Part shown: positions 3,622-26,633 of the stretch, in pieces
Position numbering within the stretch: the first letter of the stretch is position 1
Layout of the letters: every line of letters starts with the position of its first letter
Source: a bacterium
GTDB taxonomy: Bacteria > Bacillota > Clostridia > Christensenellales > Aristaeellaceae
Length of the DNA stretch: 32,000 nucleotides
NCBI GenBank assembly: GCA_963624325.1
Contig: CAVFPH010000003.1
Location: 15,029 to 47,028 of the forward strand
Direction: 5' to 3'
Notes under the pieces: generated by a model
The model's input: the letters and a program-made list of their open reading frames with translations, nothing else
Told to the model about the DNA's origin: nothing
Database searches by the model: none
Translations under genes and position numbers: made by a program

Positions 3622-4980
3622 TTACGACAGTCCCAGGATCATGCCGGCAAAGCCGCAGTAAATCAGCAGCGCCAGGGCATCGACAATGGTGGTAATAAAC
3701 GGGCTGGCCATTACTGCCGGGTCAAAGCCCAGCTTGTCGGCCAAAATCGGCAGGGTACAGCCGACGAGCTTGGCAATGAATACCACCACGGCCAAGGTCA
3801 GGCAGATGGTCAGGGCAATGGGCGCAGCAACACGCTCCACCAGCAAAAGCTTTACAAAGTTTGCCACTGCAAGCGTCACGCCGCACATGACGGCAACCCG
3901 TATTTCCTTCCACCACACCTTGAACAGATCGGTAAAATGGAGCTCGCCCAGCGAAATGCTGCGGATTACCGTAACCGAGGACTGGCTGCCGCAGTTGCCG
4001 CCTGTATCCATCAGCATGGGAATGGCAGCGGTCAGGGCAATGGAGAAGCTGAGCACATTTTCAAAGTGCGTAATAATCATGCCCGTAAAGGTGGCGGAGA
4101 GCATCAGCAGCAGCAGCCACGGAATACGGCTTTTCCAAAGTGTCCACACGGAGGTTTTCAGGTAAGGGCGGTCGCTTGGCGTAATAGCCGCCATCTTGCT
4201 GATATCCTCGGTAGCCTCTTCTTCGATAACATCAATGGCATCGTCTACCGTGACGATACCAACCAGACGGTTTTCAGTATCGACCACAGGAAGGACGTTC
4301 AGATCGTATAGGCTGAAGAGATGCGCGACGGATTCCTGATCCTCCTGGGTGGTTACGGAGATGACGTTTGTCTCCATGATATCCTGCATCAGGGCATCTT
4401 CCTGTGCCATCACGATGGTACGCAGGGAAACGACGCCCAGCAGGTGCCTGCCTTCATCAATGATGTAGCAGGTGTTGACCGTTTCCTTATCCATGCCGGT
4501 CCGGCGGATGGATGTTATGGCATCAGCCGCCGTCATGCTGGGGCGCAGCGCCACAAACTCAATGGTCATGATGGAGCCGGCGCTGTCCTCCGGATAGCGC
4601 AGAAGCTCATTAATGCTCTTGCGCATATCGGGATCAGCCTGAGCCAGCAGACGCTTGACCACGTTGGCGGGCATTTCCTCCACCAGGTCTACCGCATCAT
4701 CCACATACAGCTCATCCAACACGGATTTCAGCTCGGTATCCGAAAAGCTGCGGATCAGCTTTTCCTGCATATCGGGCTCCATTTCTACAAAGGTTTCGGC
4801 TGCCTGCTCCTTGGGAAGCAGGCGGAAGAGCGGGGCGGGGGCGCTGTCCGGCAGCATGGCAAACAGAGCCGCCACCTGTGCGGGCTGCATGGTAACCAGC
4901 ACATCCCGCAAAGTACTGTACTTTTTGCCTTCCCACAATTTTTCTATTGTGGTTTCAAAGGCATTATCGATCTGCGACAT
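3622..4980 (-). CDS. mgtE: Magnesium transporter MgtE
   Basis: The protein has an MgtE N-domain, a CBS pair and a C-terminal five-TM domain (IPMLMDTGGNCGSQSS). A GGAGGG RBS lies upstream. Confidence 0.95.
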   Translation of the reverse strand: MSQIDNAFETTIEKLWEGKKYSTLRDVLVTMQPAQVAALFAMLPDSAPAPLFRLLPKEQAAETFVEMEPDMQEKLIRSFSDTELKSVLDELYVDDAVDLVEEMPANVVKRLLAQADPDMRKSINELLRYPEDSAGSIMTIEFVALRPSMTAADAITSIRRTGMDKETVNTCYIIDEGRHLLGVVSLRTIVMAQEDALMQDIMETNVISVTTQEDQESVAHLFSLYDLNVLPVVDTENRLVGIVTVDDAIDVIEEEATEDISKMAAITPSDRPYLKTSVWTLWKSRIPWLLLLMLSATFTGMIITHFENVLSFSIALTAAIPMLMDTGGNCGSQSSVTVIRSISLGELHFTDLFKVWWKEIRVAVMCGVTLAVANFVKLLLVERVAAPIALTICLTLAVVVFIAKLVGCTLPILADKLGFDPAVMASPFITTIVDALALLIYCGFAGMILGLS

Positions 4981-5195: not shown

Positions 5196-5368
5196 AAACT
5201 GAGCATCGCTGCTACCGTTCGAGCTTCAGCATCGCCGGGCAATGAAACTGCGTTAGGCCATGCCTTGTATTTCGACATTGCCTGCTCATACCTGCTCAAA
5301 GTGTCTCCACTTCTCCGCGGCAGCAGTCCGTATCCCTGCGGTAGCCTTGCCTACCGGGCTTTCGCGTA
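5196..5368 (-). promoter_or_regulatory. M-box (ykoK leader) Mg2+ riboswitch upstream of mgtE
   Basis: The minus strand contains GGUAGGCAAGGCUAC...GGAUACGGACUGCUGCCGC...GAUGCUGAAGCUCGAACGG. These parallel the conserved B. subtilis M-box blocks GUUAGGUGAGGCU, ACGCUGCUGCCC and GUGCUAAAGCUCUACG. The element is in the canonical position 5' of mgtE. Confidence 0.8.
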
Positions 5369-5403: not shown

Positions 5404-5454
5404 CGTTAAAATTAACCTCTTTTGAGAAGATTTGCGCCGTCATTCATTGACATT

Positions 5455-5498
5455 TTCCGCAAAAACAAGCATTTTTTCTGTTTTGCGGCTGTTTTTTT
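5455..5498 (+). terminator. Terminator-like hairpin plus T-run with no upstream plus-strand gene
   Basis: CCGCAAAAACA-(11 nt)-TGTTTTGCGG is followed by CTGTTTTTTTCC. Confidence 0.3.
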
Positions 5499-5509
5499 CC
5501 GTATGGTTC

Positions 5510-5538
5510 TTGAAAGGAATCGTTTTGCGTTTTACAAT
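5510..5538 (+). promoter_or_regulatory. Sigma-A promoter for nfnA (TTGAAA-17-TACAAT)
   Basis: TTGAAA is at 5510-5515 and TACAAT at 5533-5538. Confidence 0.55.
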
Positions 5539-5587
5539 AAGGAAGAAACGCAATCGCACGGTGCGATTAATGATAAAGGAGTCGCTT

Positions 5588-6445
5588 ATGTACCGCATTA
5601 CAGATAAGAAAGTGCTGAACACCGATGTTATACAAATGGACATTGAAGCGCCGCTGGTAGCACGCAAGGCAAAGCCCGGACAGTTTATCATTCTGCGCGT
5701 CGATGCGGATGGGGAGCGCATTCCCCTGACCATTGCGGGCAGGGATGCGCAGGCAGGCACAGTACGCATTATTTTTCAAACAGTCGGCGCCACCACACTG
5801 CTGCTCGGTCACAAAAATGTCGGAGACAGCATCCCCGATTTTGTCGGGCCGCTGGGCACTGCCACAGCGCTGGACGGGCTTCAGCGGGTATGCGTAATCG
5901 GCGGCGGGGTAGGCTGCGCCATTGCGCTGCCCATTGCACAGGCACTGCATGCGCAGGGTGCGGATGTCACAAGCATTATCGGATTTCGCAGCAGCAAGCA
6001 GGCAATACTGGAAGCCGATTTTGCCGCCTGTTCAAATCAGCTGATTGTTACAACCGATGACGGAAGCCTCGGCAGGCATGGGAACGTGACCATGCCGCTT
6101 GCCGATATGCTGTCCGGCGGTGCATACTTTGACAGAATTTTTGCCATCGGCCCGCTGGTCATGATGAAATTTGTTGTTGCCGCAGCGCGCCCGTATGCCG
6201 TGCCTGTCACCGTTTCAATGAATCCCATCATGATAGACGGAACGGGCATGTGCGGCGGCTGTCGGCTTACGCTTGTGCAGGACGGAAAGCGGATTGCGCG
6301 CTTTGCCTGCGTGGACGGGCCGGATTTTGACGGATACGAAGTAGACTTTGACGAAGCCATCGCGCGCAGCCGCATGTATGCGCCCTTTGAAAAAAACGCA
6401 CGGGAGCGGGTATGCAGCCTGCTTGCAAAGGCAGAGGAGGTATAA
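5588..6445 (+). CDS. nfnA: Sulfide/dihydroorotate dehydrogenase-like FAD/NAD-binding protein (NfnA-type small subunit)
   Basis: Contains an FNR-like fold motif (RIPLTIA), a GGGVGCA NAD-binding loop and the C-terminal 2Fe-2S motif CGGCR...C. I chose the ATG at 5588 because AAAGGAG lies upstream; the ORF-track start at 5432 lies in promoter DNA. Confidence 0.85.
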   Translation: MYRITDKKVLNTDVIQMDIEAPLVARKAKPGQFIILRVDADGERIPLTIAGRDAQAGTVRIIFQTVGATTLLLGHKNVGDSIPDFVGPLGTATALDGLQRVCVIGGGVGCAIALPIAQALHAQGADVTSIIGFRSSKQAILEADFAACSNQLIVTTDDGSLGRHGNVTMPLADMLSGGAYFDRIFAIGPLVMMKFVVAAARPYAVPVTVSMNPIMIDGTGMCGGCRLTLVQDGKRIARFACVDGPDFDGYEVDFDEAIARSRMYAPFEKNARERVCSLLAKAEEV

Positions 6446-6449
6446 AATC

Positions 6450-7862
6450 ATGGCAATTGAAGCAAAGAAAACCCCGATGCCCACGCAGGAAGCCGAAAAG
6501 CGCATCGGCAATTTTGAAGAGGTGGCTCTTGGCTACCCGATCGTGCTTGCACAGCAGGAGGCAGCGCGCTGTCTGAACTGCAAAAACCGTCCCTGCGTCC
6601 GGGGCTGCCCTGTCAACATTCAGATTCCCGACTTCATTGCCCGCATCAAGGTCGGCGATTATGAGGGTGCCTACCGGGTAATTGCACAGGATTCCGCCCT
6701 GCCCGCCGTATGCGGGCGCGTATGCCCGCAGGAATCCCAGTGCGAAAGCAAGTGTACCCTTGGCATCAAGTTTGAGCCTGTTGCCATCGGAAGGCTGGAG
6801 CGCTTTGCCGCGGATTGGCACCTGTCCCATGCCGATCAGCCCCCCGTTCGTCCCGTATGCAACGGGCATCGGGCAGCTGTGGTGGGTTCCGGCCCGTCCG
6901 GATTAACTTGCGCAGGCGAACTGGCACGCCGAGGCTATGATGTGACGGTATTTGAGGCGCTGCATGCCCCCGGCGGCGTGCTGAGCTACGGCATTCCGGA
7001 GTTTCGTCTTCCCAAGGCCATTGTTGCCCACGAGGTGGAAAATCTGCGTGCCCTGGGCGTAAAGATCGAAACGAATGTGGTAATCGGGAAAACGCTGACG
7101 GTGGATGAGCTGTTTGAGGATCGTTTTGAAGCCGTGTTTATCGGTTCCGGGGCCGGGCTTCCGCGGCTTATGGGGATCGAGGGCGAAGGTCTGCGCGGTG
7201 TATACTGCGCAAATGAATTCCTGACCCGTGCCAATCTGATGAAAGCCTATCATCCGTATGCCGCCACACCGATTCTGCGGGGCGGACGCGTCGCGGTTGT
7301 CGGCGGCGGCAATGTTGCCATGGATGCCGCGCGTACAGCCCTGCGCCTTGGCAGCAAGGTGGATTTGTTCTATCGCCGTTCTTTGGAGGAGCTGCCTGCC
7401 CGTCGGGAGGAGCTGGATCATGCCGTGGAGGAAGGCGTAACGCTGCACCTGCTGTGCAATCCGGTGCGGATTGTGGGCTATGACAACCCGCAGGATCCGA
7501 AAGATCCCCGGAACGGTTCCGTCAAAGCCATGGAGGTTGTGCGCATGGAGTTGGGTGAGCCCGACGAGCGCGGGCGCCGCAGACCCGTGGAAATACCGAA
7601 CAGTACCTTTACCTGGGAAACCGACTGCGTAATCATGGCGCTCGGCACATCCCCCAATCCGCTGATTAAAAATACCACGGACGGCTTGGCTGTTAACCGC
7701 TGGGGCGGCATCATCGCCGATGAAGAAACGGGAGCGACGTCTCGCTCCGGCATCTATGCCGGCGGCGACGCGGTTACGGGGGCGGCAACGGTCATTTTGG
7801 CTATGGGTGCCGGGAAAAAAGCGGCCGCTGCCATTGACCGCGCATTGTGCGGTGCATGTTAA
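6450..7862 (+). CDS. nfnB: NADPH-dependent glutamate synthase small-chain-like oxidoreductase (NfnB/GltA-type)
   Basis: Has N-terminal Fe-S cysteines (CLNCKNRPCVRGCPV and CGRVCPQESQCE) and two Rossmann GxGxxG motifs (VVGSGPSG and VVGGGNVA). The ATG at 6450 follows GGAGG, 4 nt after the nfnA stop. Confidence 0.85.
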   Translation: MAIEAKKTPMPTQEAEKRIGNFEEVALGYPIVLAQQEAARCLNCKNRPCVRGCPVNIQIPDFIARIKVGDYEGAYRVIAQDSALPAVCGRVCPQESQCESKCTLGIKFEPVAIGRLERFAADWHLSHADQPPVRPVCNGHRAAVVGSGPSGLTCAGELARRGYDVTVFEALHAPGGVLSYGIPEFRLPKAIVAHEVENLRALGVKIETNVVIGKTLTVDELFEDRFEAVFIGSGAGLPRLMGIEGEGLRGVYCANEFLTRANLMKAYHPYAATPILRGGRVAVVGGGNVAMDAARTALRLGSKVDLFYRRSLEELPARREELDHAVEEGVTLHLLCNPVRIVGYDNPQDPKDPRNGSVKAMEVVRMELGEPDERGRRRPVEIPNSTFTWETDCVIMALGTSPNPLIKNTTDGLAVNRWGGIIADEETGATSRSGIYAGGDAVTGAATVILAMGAGKKAAAAIDRALCGAC

Positions 7863-7961
7863 CAAAATGTATTGTTTTCAATCCGTCCACATTTGCAACA
7901 AATTATGTTCATATTTTCCAGCTACAATGGTGGGGCATTAAAAGCGAAAGGAGAATCGCTC

Positions 7962-8636
7962 TTGATATATCGAAATGAAATCAAGCACGAAATCAATGCC
8001 GGCGATAAAGCGGCGATTGTCGCCAATCTGCGTGCCGTGGCATCCCCCGACCCGCACGCCGGCAAAGACGGGCGGTATCTGATCCGCAGTCTTTACTTTG
8101 ATAACCTGTACGATAAGGCCCTGCACGAAAAAATCGACGGAGTAAATGAGCGCGAAAAGTTTCGCATCCGCTACTACAACGGTGATACCTCCTTTATCCA
8201 GCTGGAAAAGAAGGTAAAGCGGGGCGGCCTGGGCTACAAGGTATCCGCCGCACTCACCGCGCAGGAAGCGCAGCGCATTGTAGACGGTGATACCCAGTGG
8301 ATGGCCACAAGCGGCCGCGGACTTGTAATCGAGCTGTACAGCAAGATGAAGTCCCAAGGGCTGCGTCCAAGCGTCATTGTGGATTACACCCGCACACCCT
8401 TTGTGTATAAGCCGGGCAACGTTCGGGTAACGATCGACGAAAACATCCGTACCGGCCTCAAGTGTGTGGATTTCCTCAATCCAAACTGCGTCACCATCCC
8501 GGCAGGCGCCCCCGTGATGATTCTGGAAGTCAAGTGGGATGATTATCTGCCCAGCACCATCCGGCGTGCCGTGCAGGTAAAGAGCCGCCGCTGCGGTGCA
8601 TTTTCCAAGTACGAGCGCTGCAGGATATACGGCTGA
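7962..8636 (+). CDS. VTC-domain (polyphosphate polymerase-like triphosphate-tunnel) protein
   Basis: The N-terminal strand YRNEIKHEI, followed by RSLYFD, EKFRIRYY, LEKKVKRG and ILEVKWD, is the alternating charged beta-strand pattern of bacterial VTC-domain proteins. No TM segment is present. I chose the TTG at 7962 because AAAGGAG lies 7 nt upstream; the ORF-track ATG at 7872 has no RBS. Confidence 0.8.
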   Translation: MIYRNEIKHEINAGDKAAIVANLRAVASPDPHAGKDGRYLIRSLYFDNLYDKALHEKIDGVNEREKFRIRYYNGDTSFIQLEKKVKRGGLGYKVSAALTAQEAQRIVDGDTQWMATSGRGLVIELYSKMKSQGLRPSVIVDYTRTPFVYKPGNVRVTIDENIRTGLKCVDFLNPNCVTIPAGAPVMILEVKWDDYLPSTIRRAVQVKSRRCGAFSKYERCRIYG

Positions 8637-8698
8637 CGGCATTTCGGCAACCGACGATTCAAATTTCAACGATCAGAACGTGAAAGGAAGTACTCCCC

Positions 8699-9373
8699 AT
8701 GACCAATTTTTCCGACATTTTCAAGTCCTCTTTTCTTGAGAACGTAACCAGCGTTTCCTTGGTAGACATGGTCATTTGTCTGCTGCTTGCCTTCGGCGTA
8801 GGCCTGTTCATCTTCTTCGTGTACAAAAAAACGTATGCGGGCGTTATGTATTCCTCCTCCTTCGGCGGAACGCTTGTGGCTCTGACAATGATTACCAGCA
8901 TGGTCATTCTGGCCGTAACCAGCAACGTGGTACTTTCCCTCGGCATGGTAGGCGCCCTCTCCATCGTACGTTTCCGTACAGCCATCAAAGAGCCGATGGA
9001 CATTGCTTTCCTGTTCTGGGCAATCGCGGCAGGCATTGTGCTGGCCGCCGGCATGATCCCGCTGGCCGTGTTCGGCAGTGTGGTCATCGGGCTGATCATG
9101 CTTCTGTTCATGAACCGCAAGTCCAAGGACAATCCCTTTATCGCGGTCATTACCTGCCGTGATCATGATGCCGAAAAACGCGCCGCGGAATATCTGACCA
9201 AGCATGTGAAGAAAGCCGACATCAAGAGCAAGACTGCGCAGGAAGGCCATATCGAGCTGAATTACGAAGTTCGCCTGCAGTCTGACGATACCGATTTCAT
9301 CACCGAGCTTTCTGAGCTTGAAGGTGTCAACAGCGCCGTGCTGGTCTCCTATAATGGCGATTACATGGGGTGA
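8699..9373 (+). CDS. DUF4956-family polytopic membrane protein
   Basis: About five hydrophobic segments are present, including the family-typical SLGMVGALSIVRFRTAIKEPMDIAFLFWAI. These are followed by a soluble tail of about 85 aa. A GAAAGGAAG RBS lies upstream. Confidence 0.8.
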   Translation: MTNFSDIFKSSFLENVTSVSLVDMVICLLLAFGVGLFIFFVYKKTYAGVMYSSSFGGTLVALTMITSMVILAVTSNVVLSLGMVGALSIVRFRTAIKEPMDIAFLFWAIAAGIVLAAGMIPLAVFGSVVIGLIMLLFMNRKSKDNPFIAVITCRDHDAEKRAAEYLTKHVKKADIKSKTAQEGHIELNYEVRLQSDDTDFITELSELEGVNSAVLVSYNGDYMG

Positions 9374-9378
9374 GCAAT

Positions 9379-11763
9379 ATGCTCAAATCCGGAAAAATAG
9401 ACCGCATATGCTGTCTGGTCATTGTTTGTACCATGCTGCTGGCGGCAGTCTTCACGGCCATGGCAGGTTTTGGCGTGCTGGAAAGCAACCGTCAAAGCAG
9501 CTTGACCTATACAAGTCATCTGTTTGACCAGAGCACGGTGCACAAAATCGAAATCACCATGCAGGACTGGGACAGCTTTATCGATACCTGTACCAATGAA
9601 GAATACGCATCCTGTACGGTGACAATCGACGGTGAGGCACAGGGGACGGCAGGCATCCGTGCCAAAGGCAATACATCGCTCAGCTCCGTGGCGCAGTACG
9701 GTAACGACCGTTACAGCTTCAAAATAGAGTTTGACCATTATCAGGATGGAAAAACCTATCGCGGGCTGGACAAATTAAGCCTGAACAACCTGATTCAGGA
9801 CGCTACCTACATGAAGGATTACTGGAGCTACACCTTCATGAGCAAAATGGGGGTAGCCTCTCCCCTTTGCAGCTATACGGAAATCTACGTAAACGGCGAA
9901 TATTGGGGACTTTATCTGGCCGTTGAAGGCGTTGAGGATGCTTTTCTGGAGCGCAATTACGGGGAAGACAGCGGAGAGCTGTACAAGCCGGACAGCTTGA
10001 GCTTCGGCGGCGGCCGCGGCAACGGACGCGACTTTGACATGCAGGACTTCCAGGAAAAGTTCAGCAGCACCGACAGCAGCGAATCCGATCCGCCCGAGAG
10101 CGGTGCAGAAGATACGCAAAGCACATCCGGCATGCCGACACCGCCGAGCCAAGGCGGAGGCTTTGATTTCAGTTCTTTCATGCCCAGCAGCGGTTCGCAG
10201 GCCAATACCGCATCTGATAATTCCGCTGACAGCACCCCCGAAGGATTTACGCCTCCCATGCAGGGAAACAGCACCTCGGATCAGGCAGCTGCCGATACTT
10301 CGGACAGCAGTCAGAGTGCCAAGCAGTTTGATGCCGAAAGCAAGCCCGATATCGGCAGCTTCGGCAATTTCGGCGGCTTTGGCGGTTTCGGTATGGGCAG
10401 CAGCGATGTCAAGCTGCAGTACATCGATGACGATCCCGACAGCTATTCCAACATCTTTGACAGTGCAAAGACAAAGATAAAAGAAAAAGACAAAACGCGT
10501 CTGATTGCCGCGCTCAAAAAGCTCAGTGAGGGCGACACCAGCGCCATCGATACGGATTCCGTTGCCATGTACATGGCCGTGCATAACTTCCTGTGCAATG
10601 AAGACAGCTATACCGGCACCATGGTGCACAACTACTATCTGTACGAAGACGATGGCGTGATGAGCATGATCCCTTGGGATTACAACCTGGCCTTCGGCGG
10701 CTTTACCGGCGGCATTGATGCAACCGACACCGTCAATACGGCCATTGATACACTGGTTTCCAGCGGAGATGCCTCCGAGCGCCCCATGGCAGGCTGGATT
10801 ACCTCAAGTAAGGAAAACCTTGCCCTCTACCATGAAAAGTATCAGCAGTTCATCGATGAGGTGTTCACCAGCGGCTGGTTTGAAAGCGAGTATGAGCGTG
10901 TGTACGCCATGATCGCACCCTATGTGGAGAAGGAAACCCACGCATTCTACACGTATGATGAGTTCCAGACGGGAGCAGCCACATTAAAGAGCTTCTGTCT
11001 CAAGCGCGCTCAAAGCGTTCAGGGACAGCTGGACGGCAGCATTCCTTCTACCGATTCCGCGCAAAGAGGAAGCACTGCGCTGATTGACGCAAGCGAATTG
11101 AGCCTTTCTTCCATGGGCAGCATGAATACCGGCAACAACGGCGGTGATCAAAAGAGCCCTCCCGGCGGCGGCAGCTTTAGCTTTGACTTTGATGGGAATT
11201 TCAGCACCGACAGCATCCCGCAAATGCCCACGCAGGGTGGGAATACATCCTCCGGCAGCGATGATTTCAGCGGCAGTTTCGGCGGCAGCTCAGGCGGAAA
11301 TGCCGGTCAGGCGGGCGATACATCATCGTCTGAAGATGCCGGCACAGCCAATACGCAGCCGTCAAATATGCCGCAGATGCCCGCTCAGGGAGGCACCATG
11401 CCGTCGTCAGATGATTTCAGCGGCAGTTTCGGCGGAAGTTCGGGCGGAAAAGCCGATCAGGCGGGGGATGCTCAATCTTCCGATGCTGTAAGCGCATCCG
11501 ATATCCCGGCAAGTGCCCCGACGGCCTCGGCAGCGCCCGCTCCCGCTTCGGAAACGCGAACCGATGCGTCCGCCGATGAAAGCAAGGACGAGCAAAAGTC
11601 AAATCACGGGAACAGTAAGTCGGAACACGGCAATGGTGATTTTTCTTTCCCGGATCAAAATCACGGAACGCAGAATCAGGCAAAATGGGCTTATCTGCTT
11701 GCCTGCGCAGTCGTGTTGATCCTTGCCTGTATTATTGTCAAGTGCTTTAAGCACCGCACATAA
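9379..11763 (+). CDS. CotH kinase-family protein with N- and C-terminal membrane anchors and Ser/Gly/Asp-rich low-complexity regions
   Basis: CotH blocks YSFKIEFD, LNNLIQDATYMKDY, EIYVNGEYWGLYLAVEGVED, GELYKPD and HNYYLYEDDGVMSMIPWDYNLAFGGF are present. The N-terminal TM is ICCLVIVCTMLLAAVFTAMAGF and the C-terminal TM is WAYLLACAVVLILACIIV followed by KCFKHRT. An alternative GTG start at 9370 overlaps the DUF4956 stop (GTGA). Confidence 0.85.
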   Translation: MLKSGKIDRICCLVIVCTMLLAAVFTAMAGFGVLESNRQSSLTYTSHLFDQSTVHKIEITMQDWDSFIDTCTNEEYASCTVTIDGEAQGTAGIRAKGNTSLSSVAQYGNDRYSFKIEFDHYQDGKTYRGLDKLSLNNLIQDATYMKDYWSYTFMSKMGVASPLCSYTEIYVNGEYWGLYLAVEGVEDAFLERNYGEDSGELYKPDSLSFGGGRGNGRDFDMQDFQEKFSSTDSSESDPPESGAEDTQSTSGMPTPPSQGGGFDFSSFMPSSGSQANTASDNSADSTPEGFTPPMQGNSTSDQAAADTSDSSQSAKQFDAESKPDIGSFGNFGGFGGFGMGSSDVKLQYIDDDPDSYSNIFDSAKTKIKEKDKTRLIAALKKLSEGDTSAIDTDSVAMYMAVHNFLCNEDSYTGTMVHNYYLYEDDGVMSMIPWDYNLAFGGFTGGIDATDTVNTAIDTLVSSGDASERPMAGWITSSKENLALYHEKYQQFIDEVFTSGWFESEYERVYAMIAPYVEKETHAFYTYDEFQTGAATLKSFCLKRAQSVQGQLDGSIPSTDSAQRGSTALIDASELSLSSMGSMNTGNNGGDQKSPPGGGSFSFDFDGNFSTDSIPQMPTQGGNTSSGSDDFSGSFGGSSGGNAGQAGDTSSSEDAGTANTQPSNMPQMPAQGGTMPSSDDFSGSFGGSSGGKADQAGDAQSSDAVSASDIPASAPTASAAPAPASETRTDASADESKDEQKSNHGNSKSEHGNGDFSFPDQNHGTQNQAKWAYLLACAVVLILACIIVKCFKHRT
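11218..11480 (+). repeat. In-frame near-tandem duplication (about 150-153 nt, about 50 aa) inside the CotH C-terminal low-complexity region
   Basis: The 26-mer GATGATTTCAGCGGCAGTTTCGGCGG occurs identically at 11260-11285 and 11410-11435. The units encode PQMPTQGG..SDDFSGSFGGSSGGNAGQAGD and PQMPAQGG..SDDFSGSFGGSSGGKADQAGD. Confidence 0.85.
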
Positions 11764-11773
11764 TCCGCCAGAG

Positions 11774-11810
11774 AAATGCCTGAAATTTAACAGATTTCGG
11801 GCATTTTTTC
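11774..11810 (+). terminator. Intrinsic terminator after the CotH gene
   Basis: The stem AAATGCCTGAAAT/ATTTCGGGCATTT is followed by TTTTTT. Confidence 0.75.
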
Positions 11811-11826
11811 ACATTTCCGATTGTTC

Positions 11827-11866
11827 AAAAGATCCCTTCGGGCATCGCTGCCCGAAGGGATCTTTT
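11827..11866 (-). terminator. Intrinsic terminator after groEL, bidirectional in form
   Basis: The stem AAAAGATCCCTTCGGGCA/TGCCCGAAGGGATCTTTT is perfect and is flanked by A and T tracts. Confidence 0.8.
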
Positions 11867-15270: not shown

Positions 15271-15392
15271 AAGGGCTGTGCTTAGGAAAGAGGCCCAAAG
15301 GGTTCCGAGGCATGGGTGATGAGCCCGGCAAGGCGAGTGCCCTGCAAAGGTTCATCGGTTATCCGCAAGGATATTGAAAGGAAGTATGTATT

Positions 15393-15836
15393 ATGTTGCC
15401 TATGGTTTTCAGTGAGAATCTGTTTGATGATCTGTTTAACGATACCTTCGCCCGCAGCATGTGGAACACCAACAAGGAGCTCTACGGCAAGAACGCTTCC
15501 CGTCTGATGAAGACGGATGTACATGAAACGGAAGACAGCTACGAGCTGGCCATCGATCTGCCCGGCTTCAAGAAGGAAGAAATCAACGTAGACCTGAAGG
15601 ATGGTTATCTGACCATCCGTGCCACCAAGTCCTTGGACAAGGATGAAGAGGACAAGAAGCAGCGCCGTGTCATCCGTCAGGAGCGCTATGTCGGCACCAG
15701 CCAGCGTACCTTCTACGTGGGCGATGTAAAGGCCGAGGATGTCAAGTGCAAGTATGAGGCCGGCGTGCTCATGATCGAAGTTCCCAAGAAGGACGTCAAG
15801 AAGATTGAAGGTCCTCATACCATCGCAATCGAATAA
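15393..15836 (+). CDS. Hsp20/alpha-crystallin family small heat-shock protein
   Basis: The alpha-crystallin domain reads TDVHETEDSYELAIDLPGFKKEEINVDLKDGYLTIRA...GVLMIEVPK. A GAAAGGAAG RBS lies upstream. Confidence 0.92.
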   Translation: MLPMVFSENLFDDLFNDTFARSMWNTNKELYGKNASRLMKTDVHETEDSYELAIDLPGFKKEEINVDLKDGYLTIRATKSLDKDEEDKKQRRVIRQERYVGTSQRTFYVGDVKAEDVKCKYEAGVLMIEVPKKDVKKIEGPHTIAIE

Positions 15837-24826: not shown

Positions 24827-25948
24827 ATGAAGTATCGCTTGCTGTCCCTGCTGTTGACCATCGCACTGATTGCCTGCCTCGTTTCATCCGCCTATGCCGA
24901 CAAATCCTATAATCGCCTGTTTAGCGGTACAGCCGCACCAAGTAAAACAGCCGATACCGACGAGGACGCAGATGCAGCCCTCGAGCTAATGCCCGACAAC
25001 TACGCCCTCTATCAGCTGATTGCCGGGCACATTGCCTTTGCCCTGCCGCAATTGCCGCAGCAATTGGAGCAGGAAGCAAACACAATTTTCAATTGGCGCA
25101 AGGAGTATTATTTTACCACTGAGGATGGAGAATACAGCATTGCCGTGGCGGACATTGCCCCGCTGATGGAGCAGATCAAGGTTCTTCTCAAAGATCAGGA
25201 AGCCAAGGACATCGACCTTGAAGTGCAGTCCGTCCTGAATTATGCCAGTCTGATCATCGTGAAAGCATTCAACGGGCAATTCAAGCAAATCGGTGCGCAG
25301 GAAATCACAGTCGGGGATGCATCGTATGTCAACGTGCAGTTCACTTACCAATACGGCGATTTGCCGGATGTGGAGTATCTCGGCAACGCTCTCATGGATG
25401 GCACCACCATGGTGCTGGCCATGGTTACCAACGACGAACGCGGACAGGAAATCGTCTCTCATATGCGTCCCCTATCCGATGAGGCGCTGGAAAACCTGAC
25501 CGCATCGCTGACAACCCCATGTGAGCAGACGATTGGCCGGCTGACGGTTACCTTTCCGGCCTCGGTACGGCAAGGCAAGCAGGCAGATGGCTACATTCCC
25601 TATTGGGTTTGCTTTACGCAGGATGGGGAAATCATGTATGCCGAGCAATTTCAGGCGGGCATCGTGCCCGATGATGATACGGCTGAAGCCTTGCAGAAAA
25701 TGTTATCCGCTGCTGTGGAAAGACGCATCATGCTCGGCATCGCCGGATCGGACTTGCAGATAACCGCGCTGGATACCCTGCCGGATGGCACGGTTATGAT
25801 GGCGTTCCGCTTTGCGACAGAGTTTCAGCCTTATGAAGCCTGCTGCGGCCGCATTTATCGTACGCCCGATCAGGATTATTGCATCATATACAGCTTTGAC
25901 ACCGAGGCAGGGCGTGCCTTTGTGGACAGCGCGGTGTGGAACCCGTAA
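24827..25948 (+). CDS. Hypothetical exported protein, possibly a lipoprotein, with no recognisable domain
   Basis: A GAAGGAGG RBS lies upstream. The signal peptide MKYRLLSLLLTIALIACLVSSAYA has a lipobox-like LIAC and an AYA-D cleavage-like site. The frame is 373 aa with ordinary composition. Confidence 0.7.
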   Translation: MKYRLLSLLLTIALIACLVSSAYADKSYNRLFSGTAAPSKTADTDEDADAALELMPDNYALYQLIAGHIAFALPQLPQQLEQEANTIFNWRKEYYFTTEDGEYSIAVADIAPLMEQIKVLLKDQEAKDIDLEVQSVLNYASLIIVKAFNGQFKQIGAQEITVGDASYVNVQFTYQYGDLPDVEYLGNALMDGTTMVLAMVTNDERGQEIVSHMRPLSDEALENLTASLTTPCEQTIGRLTVTFPASVRQGKQADGYIPYWVCFTQDGEIMYAEQFQAGIVPDDDTAEALQKMLSAAVERRIMLGIAGSDLQITALDTLPDGTVMMAFRFATEFQPYEACCGRIYRTPDQDYCIIYSFDTEAGRAFVDSAVWNP

Positions 25949-25967
25949 AAGCAATTTGAACCACGTG

Positions 25968-26005
25968 AAAGGGGCTTCCGATCATCCGGAAGCCCCTTTG
26001 ATTTT
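25968..26005. terminator. Bidirectional intrinsic terminator between the hypothetical gene and GNAT
   Basis: The stem AAAGGGGCTTCCG/CGGAAGCCCCTTT is followed by GATTTT. Confidence 0.75.
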
Positions 26006-26483
26006 ATACCAGCTCGTAGGCGATTCTGGGCGAACCGCCCCGCACGTAGATAATGCCGCGGCAGCTGAAGCCGCACTTTGCAATCAGGTGCTGCATAATG
26101 CGGTTGTCCGCGTGCGTATCGATGCGCAAATGCGCAATCTGCTGTCCGCAAAAGGCTACGGCCTGCTGCAGCAGCCCATGAGCCTTCCCGTTTCCGGCAA
26201 TTCTGTGAATCGTGCCGTAGGGAGCATCCGACAGCCAGCTGCCATTGTCAATTACGGCATAGGTAGGATCTGCGCCGATGATAAAGGCAAACACGCCGAC
26301 AGGGGCATTGTCCTCTTCAATGATATACAGCTGTCCCTGATCAACATCCCGTTCCAGCACATCCCTTTGCGGATAGCCGTCCCCCCACTGGGCAGGGTTT
26401 CCGGTATCGGCCATAAATTTGCGGGCATAGGCGTAGATATCCAGAACAGCAGATATATCCTGCATGGAAGCTTTGCGGATCAT
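26004..26483 (-). CDS. GNAT family N-acetyltransferase
   Basis: The protein is 159 aa and carries a GNAT core (RIAGNGKAHGLLQQAVAFC acetyl-CoA loop-like). An AAAGGAAG RBS lies upstream. Confidence 0.8.
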   Translation of the reverse strand: MIRKASMQDISAVLDIYAYARKFMADTGNPAQWGDGYPQRDVLERDVDQGQLYIIEEDNAPVGVFAFIIGADPTYAVIDNGSWLSDAPYGTIHRIAGNGKAHGLLQQAVAFCGQQIAHLRIDTHADNRIMQHLIAKCGFSCRGIIYVRGGSPRIAYELV

Positions 26484-26504
26484 CGTTTTTCTTCCTTTAT
26501 CCGA

Positions 26505-26633
26505 TTACTTTTTGTCAATCAGGCGAAGCAGGTATACCGCCAGCACAATCACGCCGATGACCGCAAAAATGCCCAGCATTCCCAGGCCCATATACTTTAA
26601 GTTTTCAACAAAAGCACCAATATGAATCTGCAT
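26505..26633 (-). CDS. oadG: OadG-like small membrane subunit of a Na+-translocating decarboxylase (42 aa, not in the ORF track)
   Basis: The ATG is the complement of 26631-26633, with GGAGG 6 nt upstream. The protein MQIHIGAFVENLKYMGLGMLGIFAVIGVIVLAVYLLRLIDKK has a single TM segment. Its start lies 12 nt downstream of the oadB stop. Confidence 0.6.
   Translation of the reverse strand: MQIHIGAFVENLKYMGLGMLGIFAVIGVIVLAVYLLRLIDKK

Follow-up and report, generated by a model that had tools for sequence, protein, structure and literature searches.

What do a relative of the eukaryotic polyphosphate (polyP) polymerase, a multi-spanning membrane protein and a kinase-fold surface protein do together when their genes stand side by side in a bacterium? 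The question is raised by a stretch of 32,000 nucleotides (nt) from a gut Clostridia bacterium, here called the window and always meant at its full length, in which three open reading frames (ORFs) on the plus strand, 7962-8636, 8699-9373 and 9379-11763, encode a VTC-family, a DUF4956 and a CotH-family protein, respectively. An earlier reading of this DNA, the original prediction, had described them, at these coordinates, as three co-directional genes between housekeeping operons and as a candidate module for polyP synthesis, export and phosphotransfer. Layout and family assignments are borne out: the first product matches PF09359 over profile positions 2-229 of 235 (E 4.8e-36, 124.9 bits vs. 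a cut-off of 23), the second PF16316 (E 3.4e-10, 40.3 bits vs. a cut-off of 30.6) and the third PF08757 (E 5.2e-58, 197.5 bits). The three genes form one operon, ending at a terminator at 11771-11809. This operon is a self-contained three-gene cell-envelope unit and part of a triad that is kept across Gram-positive phyla, with the VTC and DUF4956 proteins as invariant core and a modular surface partner that carries a conserved membrane anchor. The function put forward by the original prediction is supported in part. We favour the reading, to which we assign a probability of roughly 0.38, that the triad couples polyP synthesis to export towards a surface effector.

In a scan of one genome per species we found 80 loci encoding VTC relatives that are 56-81% identical, all of them in Clostridia (Oscillospiraceae, Lachnospiraceae, Ruminococcus and Butyrivibrio). 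The DUF4956 gene directly follows the VTC gene in 81/81 loci with enough sequence, and a third gene whose product has the same anchors comes next in 77 of the 78 informative ones, the gaps between the triad genes being mostly 9-13 nt. In a close relative (93% identity) the triad occupies the same chromosomal position, with slightly different flanks. The neighbourhood linkage of the three families that the original prediction had anticipated is thus found, in other phyla as well (see below), and a chance adjacency of the three genes is essentially excluded. Other neighbours of the triad are not conserved, except for an OmpR-type response regulator and a HisKA kinase, which adjoin it in 38/83 loci, directly upstream and either co-directional or divergent (e.g. 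7933-9883 in locus L029 and 7109-8996 in L056). A specific identity of this two-component system, e.g. PhoPR, was rejected, as the matches are generic OmpR/HisKA matches, all below the equivalog cut-offs. In the window no two-component system lies beside the triad.

The triad itself is not new; the window holds a stand-alone variant of a described, functionally unsolved trio. For streptococci, clostridia and bifidobacteria, cotH, polyP polymerase and DUF4956 genes have been listed as accessories to the pel operons of Gram-positive bacteria (Whitfield et al. 2020, PMC7112168), SIR_1594-1592 of Streptococcus intermedius, described in 2025, represent the same three families (PMC12345266), and a triad lies in NELoc-2 of Clostridium perfringens (PMC2879425). 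The view that the triad is uncharacterised therefore stands as far as biochemistry is concerned and has to be given up otherwise: besides the descriptions of 2020 and 2025 as pel accessory genes there are deletion phenotypes in S. intermedius, where loss of DUF4956 raised Pel, loss of CotH lowered it, and both reduced aggregation (PMC12345266). The same study stated that the arrangement is not found outside pel loci, and the stand-alone triads found here contradict this statement. A Pfam scan of the genes in the 32-kb window revealed no pel-type gene, no glycosyltransferase and no DUF4832 hydrolase, and within 10 kb of the triad in 82 related loci there is no homolog of pel, GT2, GT4, HEAT or DUF4832 hydrolase genes; thus, in the clade of the window, the triad is an autonomous module that is common without pel. 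The pel accessory module resembles the window operon in that the same three families are contiguous and co-directional, with a CotH protein predicted to be secreted, a cytoplasmic VTC-like protein with catalytic residues and an MgtC/ACT-like membrane protein. It differs in its pelDEADAFG, glycosyltransferase and DUF4832 hydrolase genes, which the window lacks, in its gene order (CotH-VTC-DUF4956 instead of VTC-DUF4956-CotH) and in an FN3 domain, whereas the window CotH protein has a C-terminal transmembrane (TM) segment and a long acidic stalk. The NELoc-2 cluster has the gene order of the window (VTC, a 'tubulin/FtsZ-like' membrane protein, CotH; PMC2879425), but also genes for a hypothetical protein of ~700 amino acids (aa), a HEAT protein and a chitin-synthase-like GT2 enzyme, none of which is present in the window. 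What is new here is that the triad is common without pel, that a second clade of it lies in a GT2 synthase cluster, and that CotH can be replaced by a different protein with the same anchor.

This replacement concerns the third gene, which domain-specific hidden Markov models assign to CotH in 59 and to the Cthe_2159 β-helix family (PF14262, carbohydrate-binding) in 18 of the 77 loci. The Cthe_2159-type loci are found among L009-L077 (e.g. 1965-4322 in L011 and 11371-13926 in L013), and the two types never co-occur in one locus. Both share an N-terminal motif, a low-complexity stalk and usually a C-terminal TM segment followed by KFKR; taking both types together, an N-terminal hydrophobic segment is present in every third-gene product (77), and the C-terminal TM segment followed by KFKR in 56 of the 69 complete ones. 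In the N-terminal anchor the identity between types (45%) is close to that within types (46-53%), and, judged from a tree built on VTC plus DUF4956, the third gene appears to have changed between the CotH and the Cthe_2159 type about four times. A conserved anchor on exchangeable partners is what is to be expected if the anchor contacts the VTC-DUF4956 core. Phosphotransfer by CotH, which the original prediction had included as a candidate function of the triad, cannot be obligatory for VTC-DUF4956 function, since the third gene is of the Cthe_2159 type in 18/77 loci.

How might these parts work together? In the scheme that we favour the VTC enzyme, docked on a DUF4956 oligomer, would use ATP to polymerise polyP on the cytoplasmic side of the membrane, DUF4956 would pass, or at least hand over, the chain to the outer face, and the third protein, positioned by its own TM segments, would act on or with the polymer outside. 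There it might phosphorylate surface proteins or glycans or decorate them with polyP, or it might retain polyP in the cell wall or matrix. We base this scheme on the coupled synthesis and translocation in eukaryotes, where synthesis by Vtc4 is obligatorily coupled to translocation across the membrane (bioRxiv 10.1101/2023.01.27.525886; PMC9911596), on the predicted topology of the triad proteins, and on how extremely the TM core of DUF4956, including the basic loop on its cytoplasmic side, is conserved. Physiologically, the triad most likely helps to build or modify the extracellular matrix or the cell surface, because it is embedded in exopolysaccharide loci in other lineages.

These lineages extend beyond Clostridia to Bacilli and Actinomycetota. 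Among plasmid records, all three tblastn matches (3/3) carry the triad: Pseudobutyrivibrio pNP95, where it has the order CotH-VTC-DUF4956 and lies inside an exopolysaccharide (EPS) cluster, a Planococcus plasmid with the order VTC-DUF4956-CotH-hypothetical-HEAT-GT, and Nonomuraea gerenzanensis (Actinomycetota; 6665-10030 of locus L089), where the triad has the order of the window and is not annotated in the PLSDB gene table. A second clade, with an enzyme of the Planococcus type, has a fixed arrangement in Ureibacillus, Filifactor, Murimonas and Paraclostridium, i.e. VTC-DUF4956-CotH, a hypothetical protein (~700 aa), HEAT and a chitin-synthase-like GT2, which is also how NELoc-2 of C. perfringens is organised (PMC2879425). 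In the loci of this clade (L084-L088) a hypothetical protein of ~285 aa precedes VTC, and neither this nor the ~700-aa protein belongs to a Pfam family. The CotH protein of the second clade (~483 aa) has an N-terminal hydrophobic segment with a different motif and neither a C-terminal TM segment nor a stalk. Taken together, the triad is found time and again with synthase-dependent exopolysaccharide systems, i.e. pel, the GT2 synthase cluster and the EPS cluster on a plasmid. No relatives in Bacteroidota are among the matches listed, which comprise Bacillota-like top ones; in a table of PMC10434189, BT3498 (DUF4956) of Bacteroides thetaiotaomicron adjoins a DUF2490 gene (BT3498-BT3499), a hint that the triad might have a further component in diderms.

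The DUF4956 protein (8699-9373, +; 224 aa; identified by Pfam, hydropathy and AlphaFold2 (AF2)/Foldseek) has five hydrophobic segments and a tail of ~79 aa, close to the approximately five TM segments and ~85-aa soluble tail of the original prediction. As basic residues come after TM1, TM3 and TM5, an N-out/C-in topology is predicted, with the tail in the cytoplasm. In the AF2 model this tail (9134-9370, +) is an ACT-like domain of β-α-β-β-α-β architecture (strands 146-153, 172-181, 184-192 and 210-217, helices 156-169 and 199-205), whose best Foldseek match is the C-terminal domain of Mycobacterium tuberculosis MgtC (2lqj, TMt 0.64), followed by ACT domains. Neither of the other two proteins is conserved as strongly; in an alignment of DUF4956 sequences from 54 loci/species, column identity averages 81%. 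In this alignment nearly every column is invariant in the block AVTSNVVLSLGMVGALSIVRFRTAIKEPMDIAFLFW (8912-9019, +), which runs from the end of TM2 to the start of TM4 and includes the basic loop R91-F-R93...K97. Across the family this block reads AVTSNVVLSLGMVGALSIVRFRTAIKEPxDIAFLFW. The original prediction had cast DUF4956 as counterpart of the eukaryotic VTC channel, to which it turns out to be unrelated. Its architecture, five TM segments plus an ACT-like domain, resembles that of MgtC/SapB/YhiD proteins, and homologs are named YhiD by JGI, while its sequence falls outside MgtC/SapB: the NCBIfam match (PRK09977) is weak (E 2e-6, 27.4 bits vs. a cut-off of 214), and there is no Pfam MgtC match at E <= 1. 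Nor is the strict pairing with a VTC enzyme a feature of MgtC.

This likeness opens the way for an explanation without export, in which the VTC-like enzyme would make or turn over cytoplasmic polyP or triphosphate, DUF4956, being MgtC-like, would either sense phosphate, ATP or Mg status through its ACT domain or relay the state of the surface protein, and the latter would be linked to the other two only via regulation or a membrane complex; as a whole, the operon would serve signalling or homeostasis in matrix production. The best structural match of DUF4956 being the C-terminal domain of MgtC fits this explanation, as MgtC acts by binding proteins, e.g. the F1Fo ATPase and PhoR (as cited in the S. 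intermedius literature), and the authors of the S. intermedius study assumed that the polyP is cytoplasmic (PMC12345266). The opposite changes in Pel upon loss of DUF4956 and of CotH in that organism look regulatory (PMC12345266), a two-component system adjoins the triad in the 38/83 loci mentioned above, and the conserved cytoplasmic N-terminal tail of the third protein would suit signalling. However, an explanation of this kind gives no reason why an enzyme of the Vtc4 type, with its basic chain-guiding residues largely intact, should be paired with DUF4956 in 81/81 loci, and it does not account for the near-invariant TM core of DUF4956. Moreover, cytoplasmic polyP is already made in bacteria by polyphosphate kinase (PPK), which needs no membrane partner. 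We thus consider a purely cytoplasmic function somewhat unlikely, although it competes seriously with coupled synthesis and export.

The VTC protein (7962-8636, +) is a soluble triphosphate-tunnel protein of 224 aa and a candidate polyP polymerase, as judged from Pfam, a family profile, AF2/Foldseek and residue mapping. It has no TM segment according to hydropathy and no SPX or DUF202 match in Pfam. A profile built from 72 diverse VTC homologs matches yeast Vtc4 (3g3q) with E 2e-11, and the AF2 model (pLDDT 96.5, pTM 0.91) finds Vtc4, Vtc2 and Vtc3 as its top 13 Foldseek matches in the PDB, the best being Vtc4 (E 1.4e-14, TMq 0.72). The equivalents of the catalytic residues are R4, K8, R68, R70, K84, K93, Y142, R144, R155, E189, K191, S215 and K216. 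In Vtc4, Mn-triphosphate is coordinated by K200, R264, R266, K281, Y359, R361, E426, S457 and K458, mutation of which lowers polyP in yeast (bioRxiv 10.1101/2023.01.27.525886); they correspond, in this order, to K8, R68, R70, K84, Y142, R144, E189, S215 and K216, each kept in at least 69 of the 72 homologs. The conserved catalytic tunnel residues that had been expected are therefore present as the full Vtc4 set, the basic chain-guiding ones with the deviation at E6 described below, and gene 1 is, from its sequence and its predicted structure, a cytoplasmic enzyme with the Vtc4 fold, a complete set of catalytic residues and a largely basic path for the chain.

Could it nevertheless be a hydrolytic or cyclising tunnel enzyme, i.e. 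a tripolyphosphatase, an NTPase or a nucleotide cyclase? The rest of the model would fall with this. Most characterised bacterial triphosphate tunnel metalloenzymes (TTMs) of the TTM/CYTH type are indeed hydrolases or cyclases (PMC4641920), and YgiF and CYTH cyclases are, along with thiamine triphosphatase, among the Foldseek matches of the model. Furthermore, AtTTM3 shares the residues in the tunnel centre with Vtc4 and yet does not polymerise (PMC4641920), and E6, found in 71/72 homologs at the position of Vtc4 T198, retains one Glu, the second, of the ExExK motif of hydrolytic/ancestral enzymes. The Foldseek matches to hydrolytic and cyclising enzymes rank lower, though, with E 7e-9 or worse for hydrolases compared to 1e-14 for Vtc4. 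In hydrolytic TTMs a patch of acidic residues makes up a second metal site, whereas Vtc4 is basic there and guides the growing chain (Martinez et al., PMC4641920); the corresponding positions in the window protein, R4, K84, K93, R155 and K191, are basic and invariant, as in Vtc4. In addition, the equivalent of K458 (K216), a residue that is lost in the inactive Vtc2 and Vtc3 (bioRxiv 10.1101/2023.01.27.525886) and dispensable in hydrolases (PMC4641920), is kept and invariant. A hydrolase or cyclase is thus improbable.

Some VTC homologs (P0225, P0257, P0266 and P0269) have disordered N-terminal extensions of 140-280 aa that are rich in K, R, P and E and start with a conserved DDDIFKKLKKEKP-like motif; being strongly basic, these extensions could bind polyanions. 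We also considered natural fusions of VTC and DUF4956 of the Rosetta-stone type. The sole candidate, P0194 (371 aa), was rejected: it combines truncated forms of both proteins with a tail similar to a third gene of the Cthe_2159 type and appears to be an operon that has collapsed, or a chimera from assembly, not a genuine fusion, and longer VTC homologs have only basic disordered N-terminal extensions.

The third protein of the window is a CotH kinase-fold surface protein of 794 aa, counted from ATG 9379 (9379-11763, +; Pfam, PDB profile match), and its family profile matches Bacillus cereus CotH (PDB 5jd9) with E 5e-17. It begins with a basic cytoplasmic tail and a signal-anchor (MLKSGKIDRICC...; 9379-9477, +) of the family motif MSTHKxIDxIC-TM-LFMNG, a segment that all 77 third-gene products possess; an AMA|G site in this anchor could permit cleavage, too. 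The CotH domain follows in two parts, as delimited by Pfam and PDB alignments. Its N-terminal part (9478-10014, +) contains the invariant motifs RAKGNTS, SFKIEFD and GLDK..NN..QD and is separated from the C-terminal part (10405-11049, +) by a low-complexity insert of 130 aa (10015-10404, +), recognisable by its S/D/G/P-rich composition and variable in length and sequence among homologs. The catalytic Asp residues of Bacillus subtilis CotH are D228 and D251 (PMC7821199), spaced by 23 like D224 and D247 of B. cereus; their equivalents are encoded at 10603-10605 (D228) and 10678-10680 (D251). Numbered from GTG 9370, these are D412 and D437, which align with B. cereus D224/D247 and are invariant in an alignment of 30 homologs. 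The domain is followed by a stalk of ~205 aa (11050-11664, +), predicted to be disordered from its S/G/D/A-rich composition, with a net charge of -20 and a tandem duplication of 150 nt (50 aa; 11260-11353 and 11410-11503, 79% identical; DDFSGSFGGSSGG...). Finally, hydropathy indicates a C-terminal TM anchor, WAYLLACAVVLILACIIV, with a basic tail, KCFKHRT (11665-11760, +). As the original prediction had proposed, the CotH ectodomain is therefore predicted, from these sequence features, to be extracytoplasmic, held between the N-terminal anchor and the C-terminal TM segment.

That CotH is a spore-coat kinase as in Bacillus, with unrelated neighbour genes, is hardly credible: the family was defined on coat proteins of B. 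subtilis and B. cereus and a Clostridia host may sporulate, but the window protein has both a signal-anchor and a C-terminal TM segment, together with an acidic stalk that spans the wall, the triad is shared by non-sporulating streptococci, bifidobacteria and Nonomuraea, and the operon linkage is near-universal. With the Bacillus Ser/Thr kinase (5JD9) it shares the kinase-like fold family and both catalytic Asp residues, while it differs in being membrane-anchored and predicted extracytoplasmic, and in having a domain that is split by the 130-aa insert and followed by the 205-aa stalk.

Several observations count against coupled synthesis and export. MgtC relatives of DUF4956 are regulators, not known channels. 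DUF4956 as relative of the eukaryotic VTC channel was rejected, as it has neither a DUF202 nor an SPX match and no structural match to VTC TM chains in Foldseek, and AF2 models its TM part poorly (pLDDT 64); a channel function of DUF4956 is something that we purely infer. No true VTC-DUF4956 fusion was found among the homologs, and the VTC protein retains the Glu of the ExExK motif discussed above. On the outer side of the membrane, 18 loci have a β-helix protein that is no kinase in the place of CotH, and where CotH is present its kinase active site is of the ordinary sort, which speaks for a nucleotide as donor; the speculation that polyP serves CotH as phosphodonor in place of ATP is the least supported step of all. 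A literature search found no biochemical activity assigned to any bacterial member of the triad, and deletion of the VTC gene in S. intermedius had no visible effect, including no aggregation phenotype (PMC12345266).

In comparison to the eukaryotic VTC complex (Vtc4/Vtc3/Vtc1) the window enzyme agrees in the fold of the tunnel domain, in every catalytic residue and in a largely basic exit path, and it, too, is obligatorily paired with a membrane component. In contrast to the complex, it has neither an SPX domain nor a covalently attached 3-TM VTC (DUF202) domain, it carries E6 in place of T198, and its membrane partner is a separate, unrelated MgtC-like protein with 5 TM segments and an ACT-like domain. 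The target of the polymer is the vacuole in eukaryotes and would be the cell exterior in the window bacterium. In its most explicit form coupled export would thus correspond to a split bacterial analogue of the VTC complex: a polymerase of the Vtc4 type sitting on an oligomeric, MgtC-like DUF4956 protein would extrude polyP, which would be received by an exchangeable CotH/Cthe_2159 module and used as phosphoryl or energy source outside the cell, where there is little ATP, or as matrix polyanion, either alone, as in the window, or beside Pel or GT2 exopolysaccharides. We regard this form as rather unlikely.

The expression signals are in line with a single transcription unit. Two features speak for TTG 7962 as start of the VTC gene, the ribosome-binding site AAAGGAG (7947-7953, +; read from the sequence), 8 nt before it, and the resulting length of 224 aa, which is common to hundreds of VTC homologs. 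RNA folding gave no stable structure for the 62-nt gap between VTC and DUF4956. The start of the third gene had been suspected to abut or overlap the DUF4956 stop codon; the overlap with the alternative start GTG 9370 is real, and 9379 is the likelier start since the Met at ATG 9379 is invariant in CotH homologs. A terminator appears only after the third gene, as predicted: the intrinsic operon terminator (11771-11809, +) is an 18-bp hairpin followed by U6, with -19.9 kcal/mol and z = -7.05, and 0/200 shuffles are equally stable. A second, G+C-rich hairpin of 18 bp (11827-11866, not assigned to a strand; -32.8 kcal/mol, z = -7.2) lies between the operon and the convergent groEL gene and probably is a bidirectional terminator that also serves groEL.

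The operon is flanked by housekeeping genes, upstream by an NfnAB/GltD-like pair (5432-7862) and downstream by groEL/groES on the minus strand, and further genes in the window include those for a serine dehydratase, mgtE, mutY, gyrB/A and others. Upstream of the operon no riboswitch or other RNA element was found. An anti-phage defence system was considered and rejected, as there are no PADLOC matches. Elsewhere in the window an M-box (Mg2+) riboswitch (5203-5362, minus strand; 87 bits, E 6e-18) lies directly upstream of mgtE (3622-4980, minus strand), an ordinary arrangement. Three ORFs in the window encoding 178-373 aa, 15282-15818 (minus strand), 24827-25948 (plus strand) and 25812-26600 (plus strand), have no Pfam match at E <= 1e-5; the latter two overlap, i.e. 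at least one of them may be spurious.

The autonomy of the triad in the absence of pel, the invariant VTC-DUF4956 pair and the exchangeable partner with one anchor motif isolate the core module and expose contacts that can be tested. If coupled synthesis and export is correct, the triad would represent a second, PPK-independent bacterial route to polyP and the first dedicated polyP exporter, i.e. a synthase-dependent secretion of an inorganic polymer, and it would address how phosphoryl groups reach extracytoplasmic kinase-fold enzymes in surroundings with little ATP. Among gut and rumen Clostridia the triad is widespread, and it is also found in pathogens, i.e. the Streptococcus milleri group, C. 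perfringens NE strains and Filifactor. As it sits in biofilm or matrix loci in these pathogens, its chemistry bears on aggregation, colonisation and the interaction with the host.

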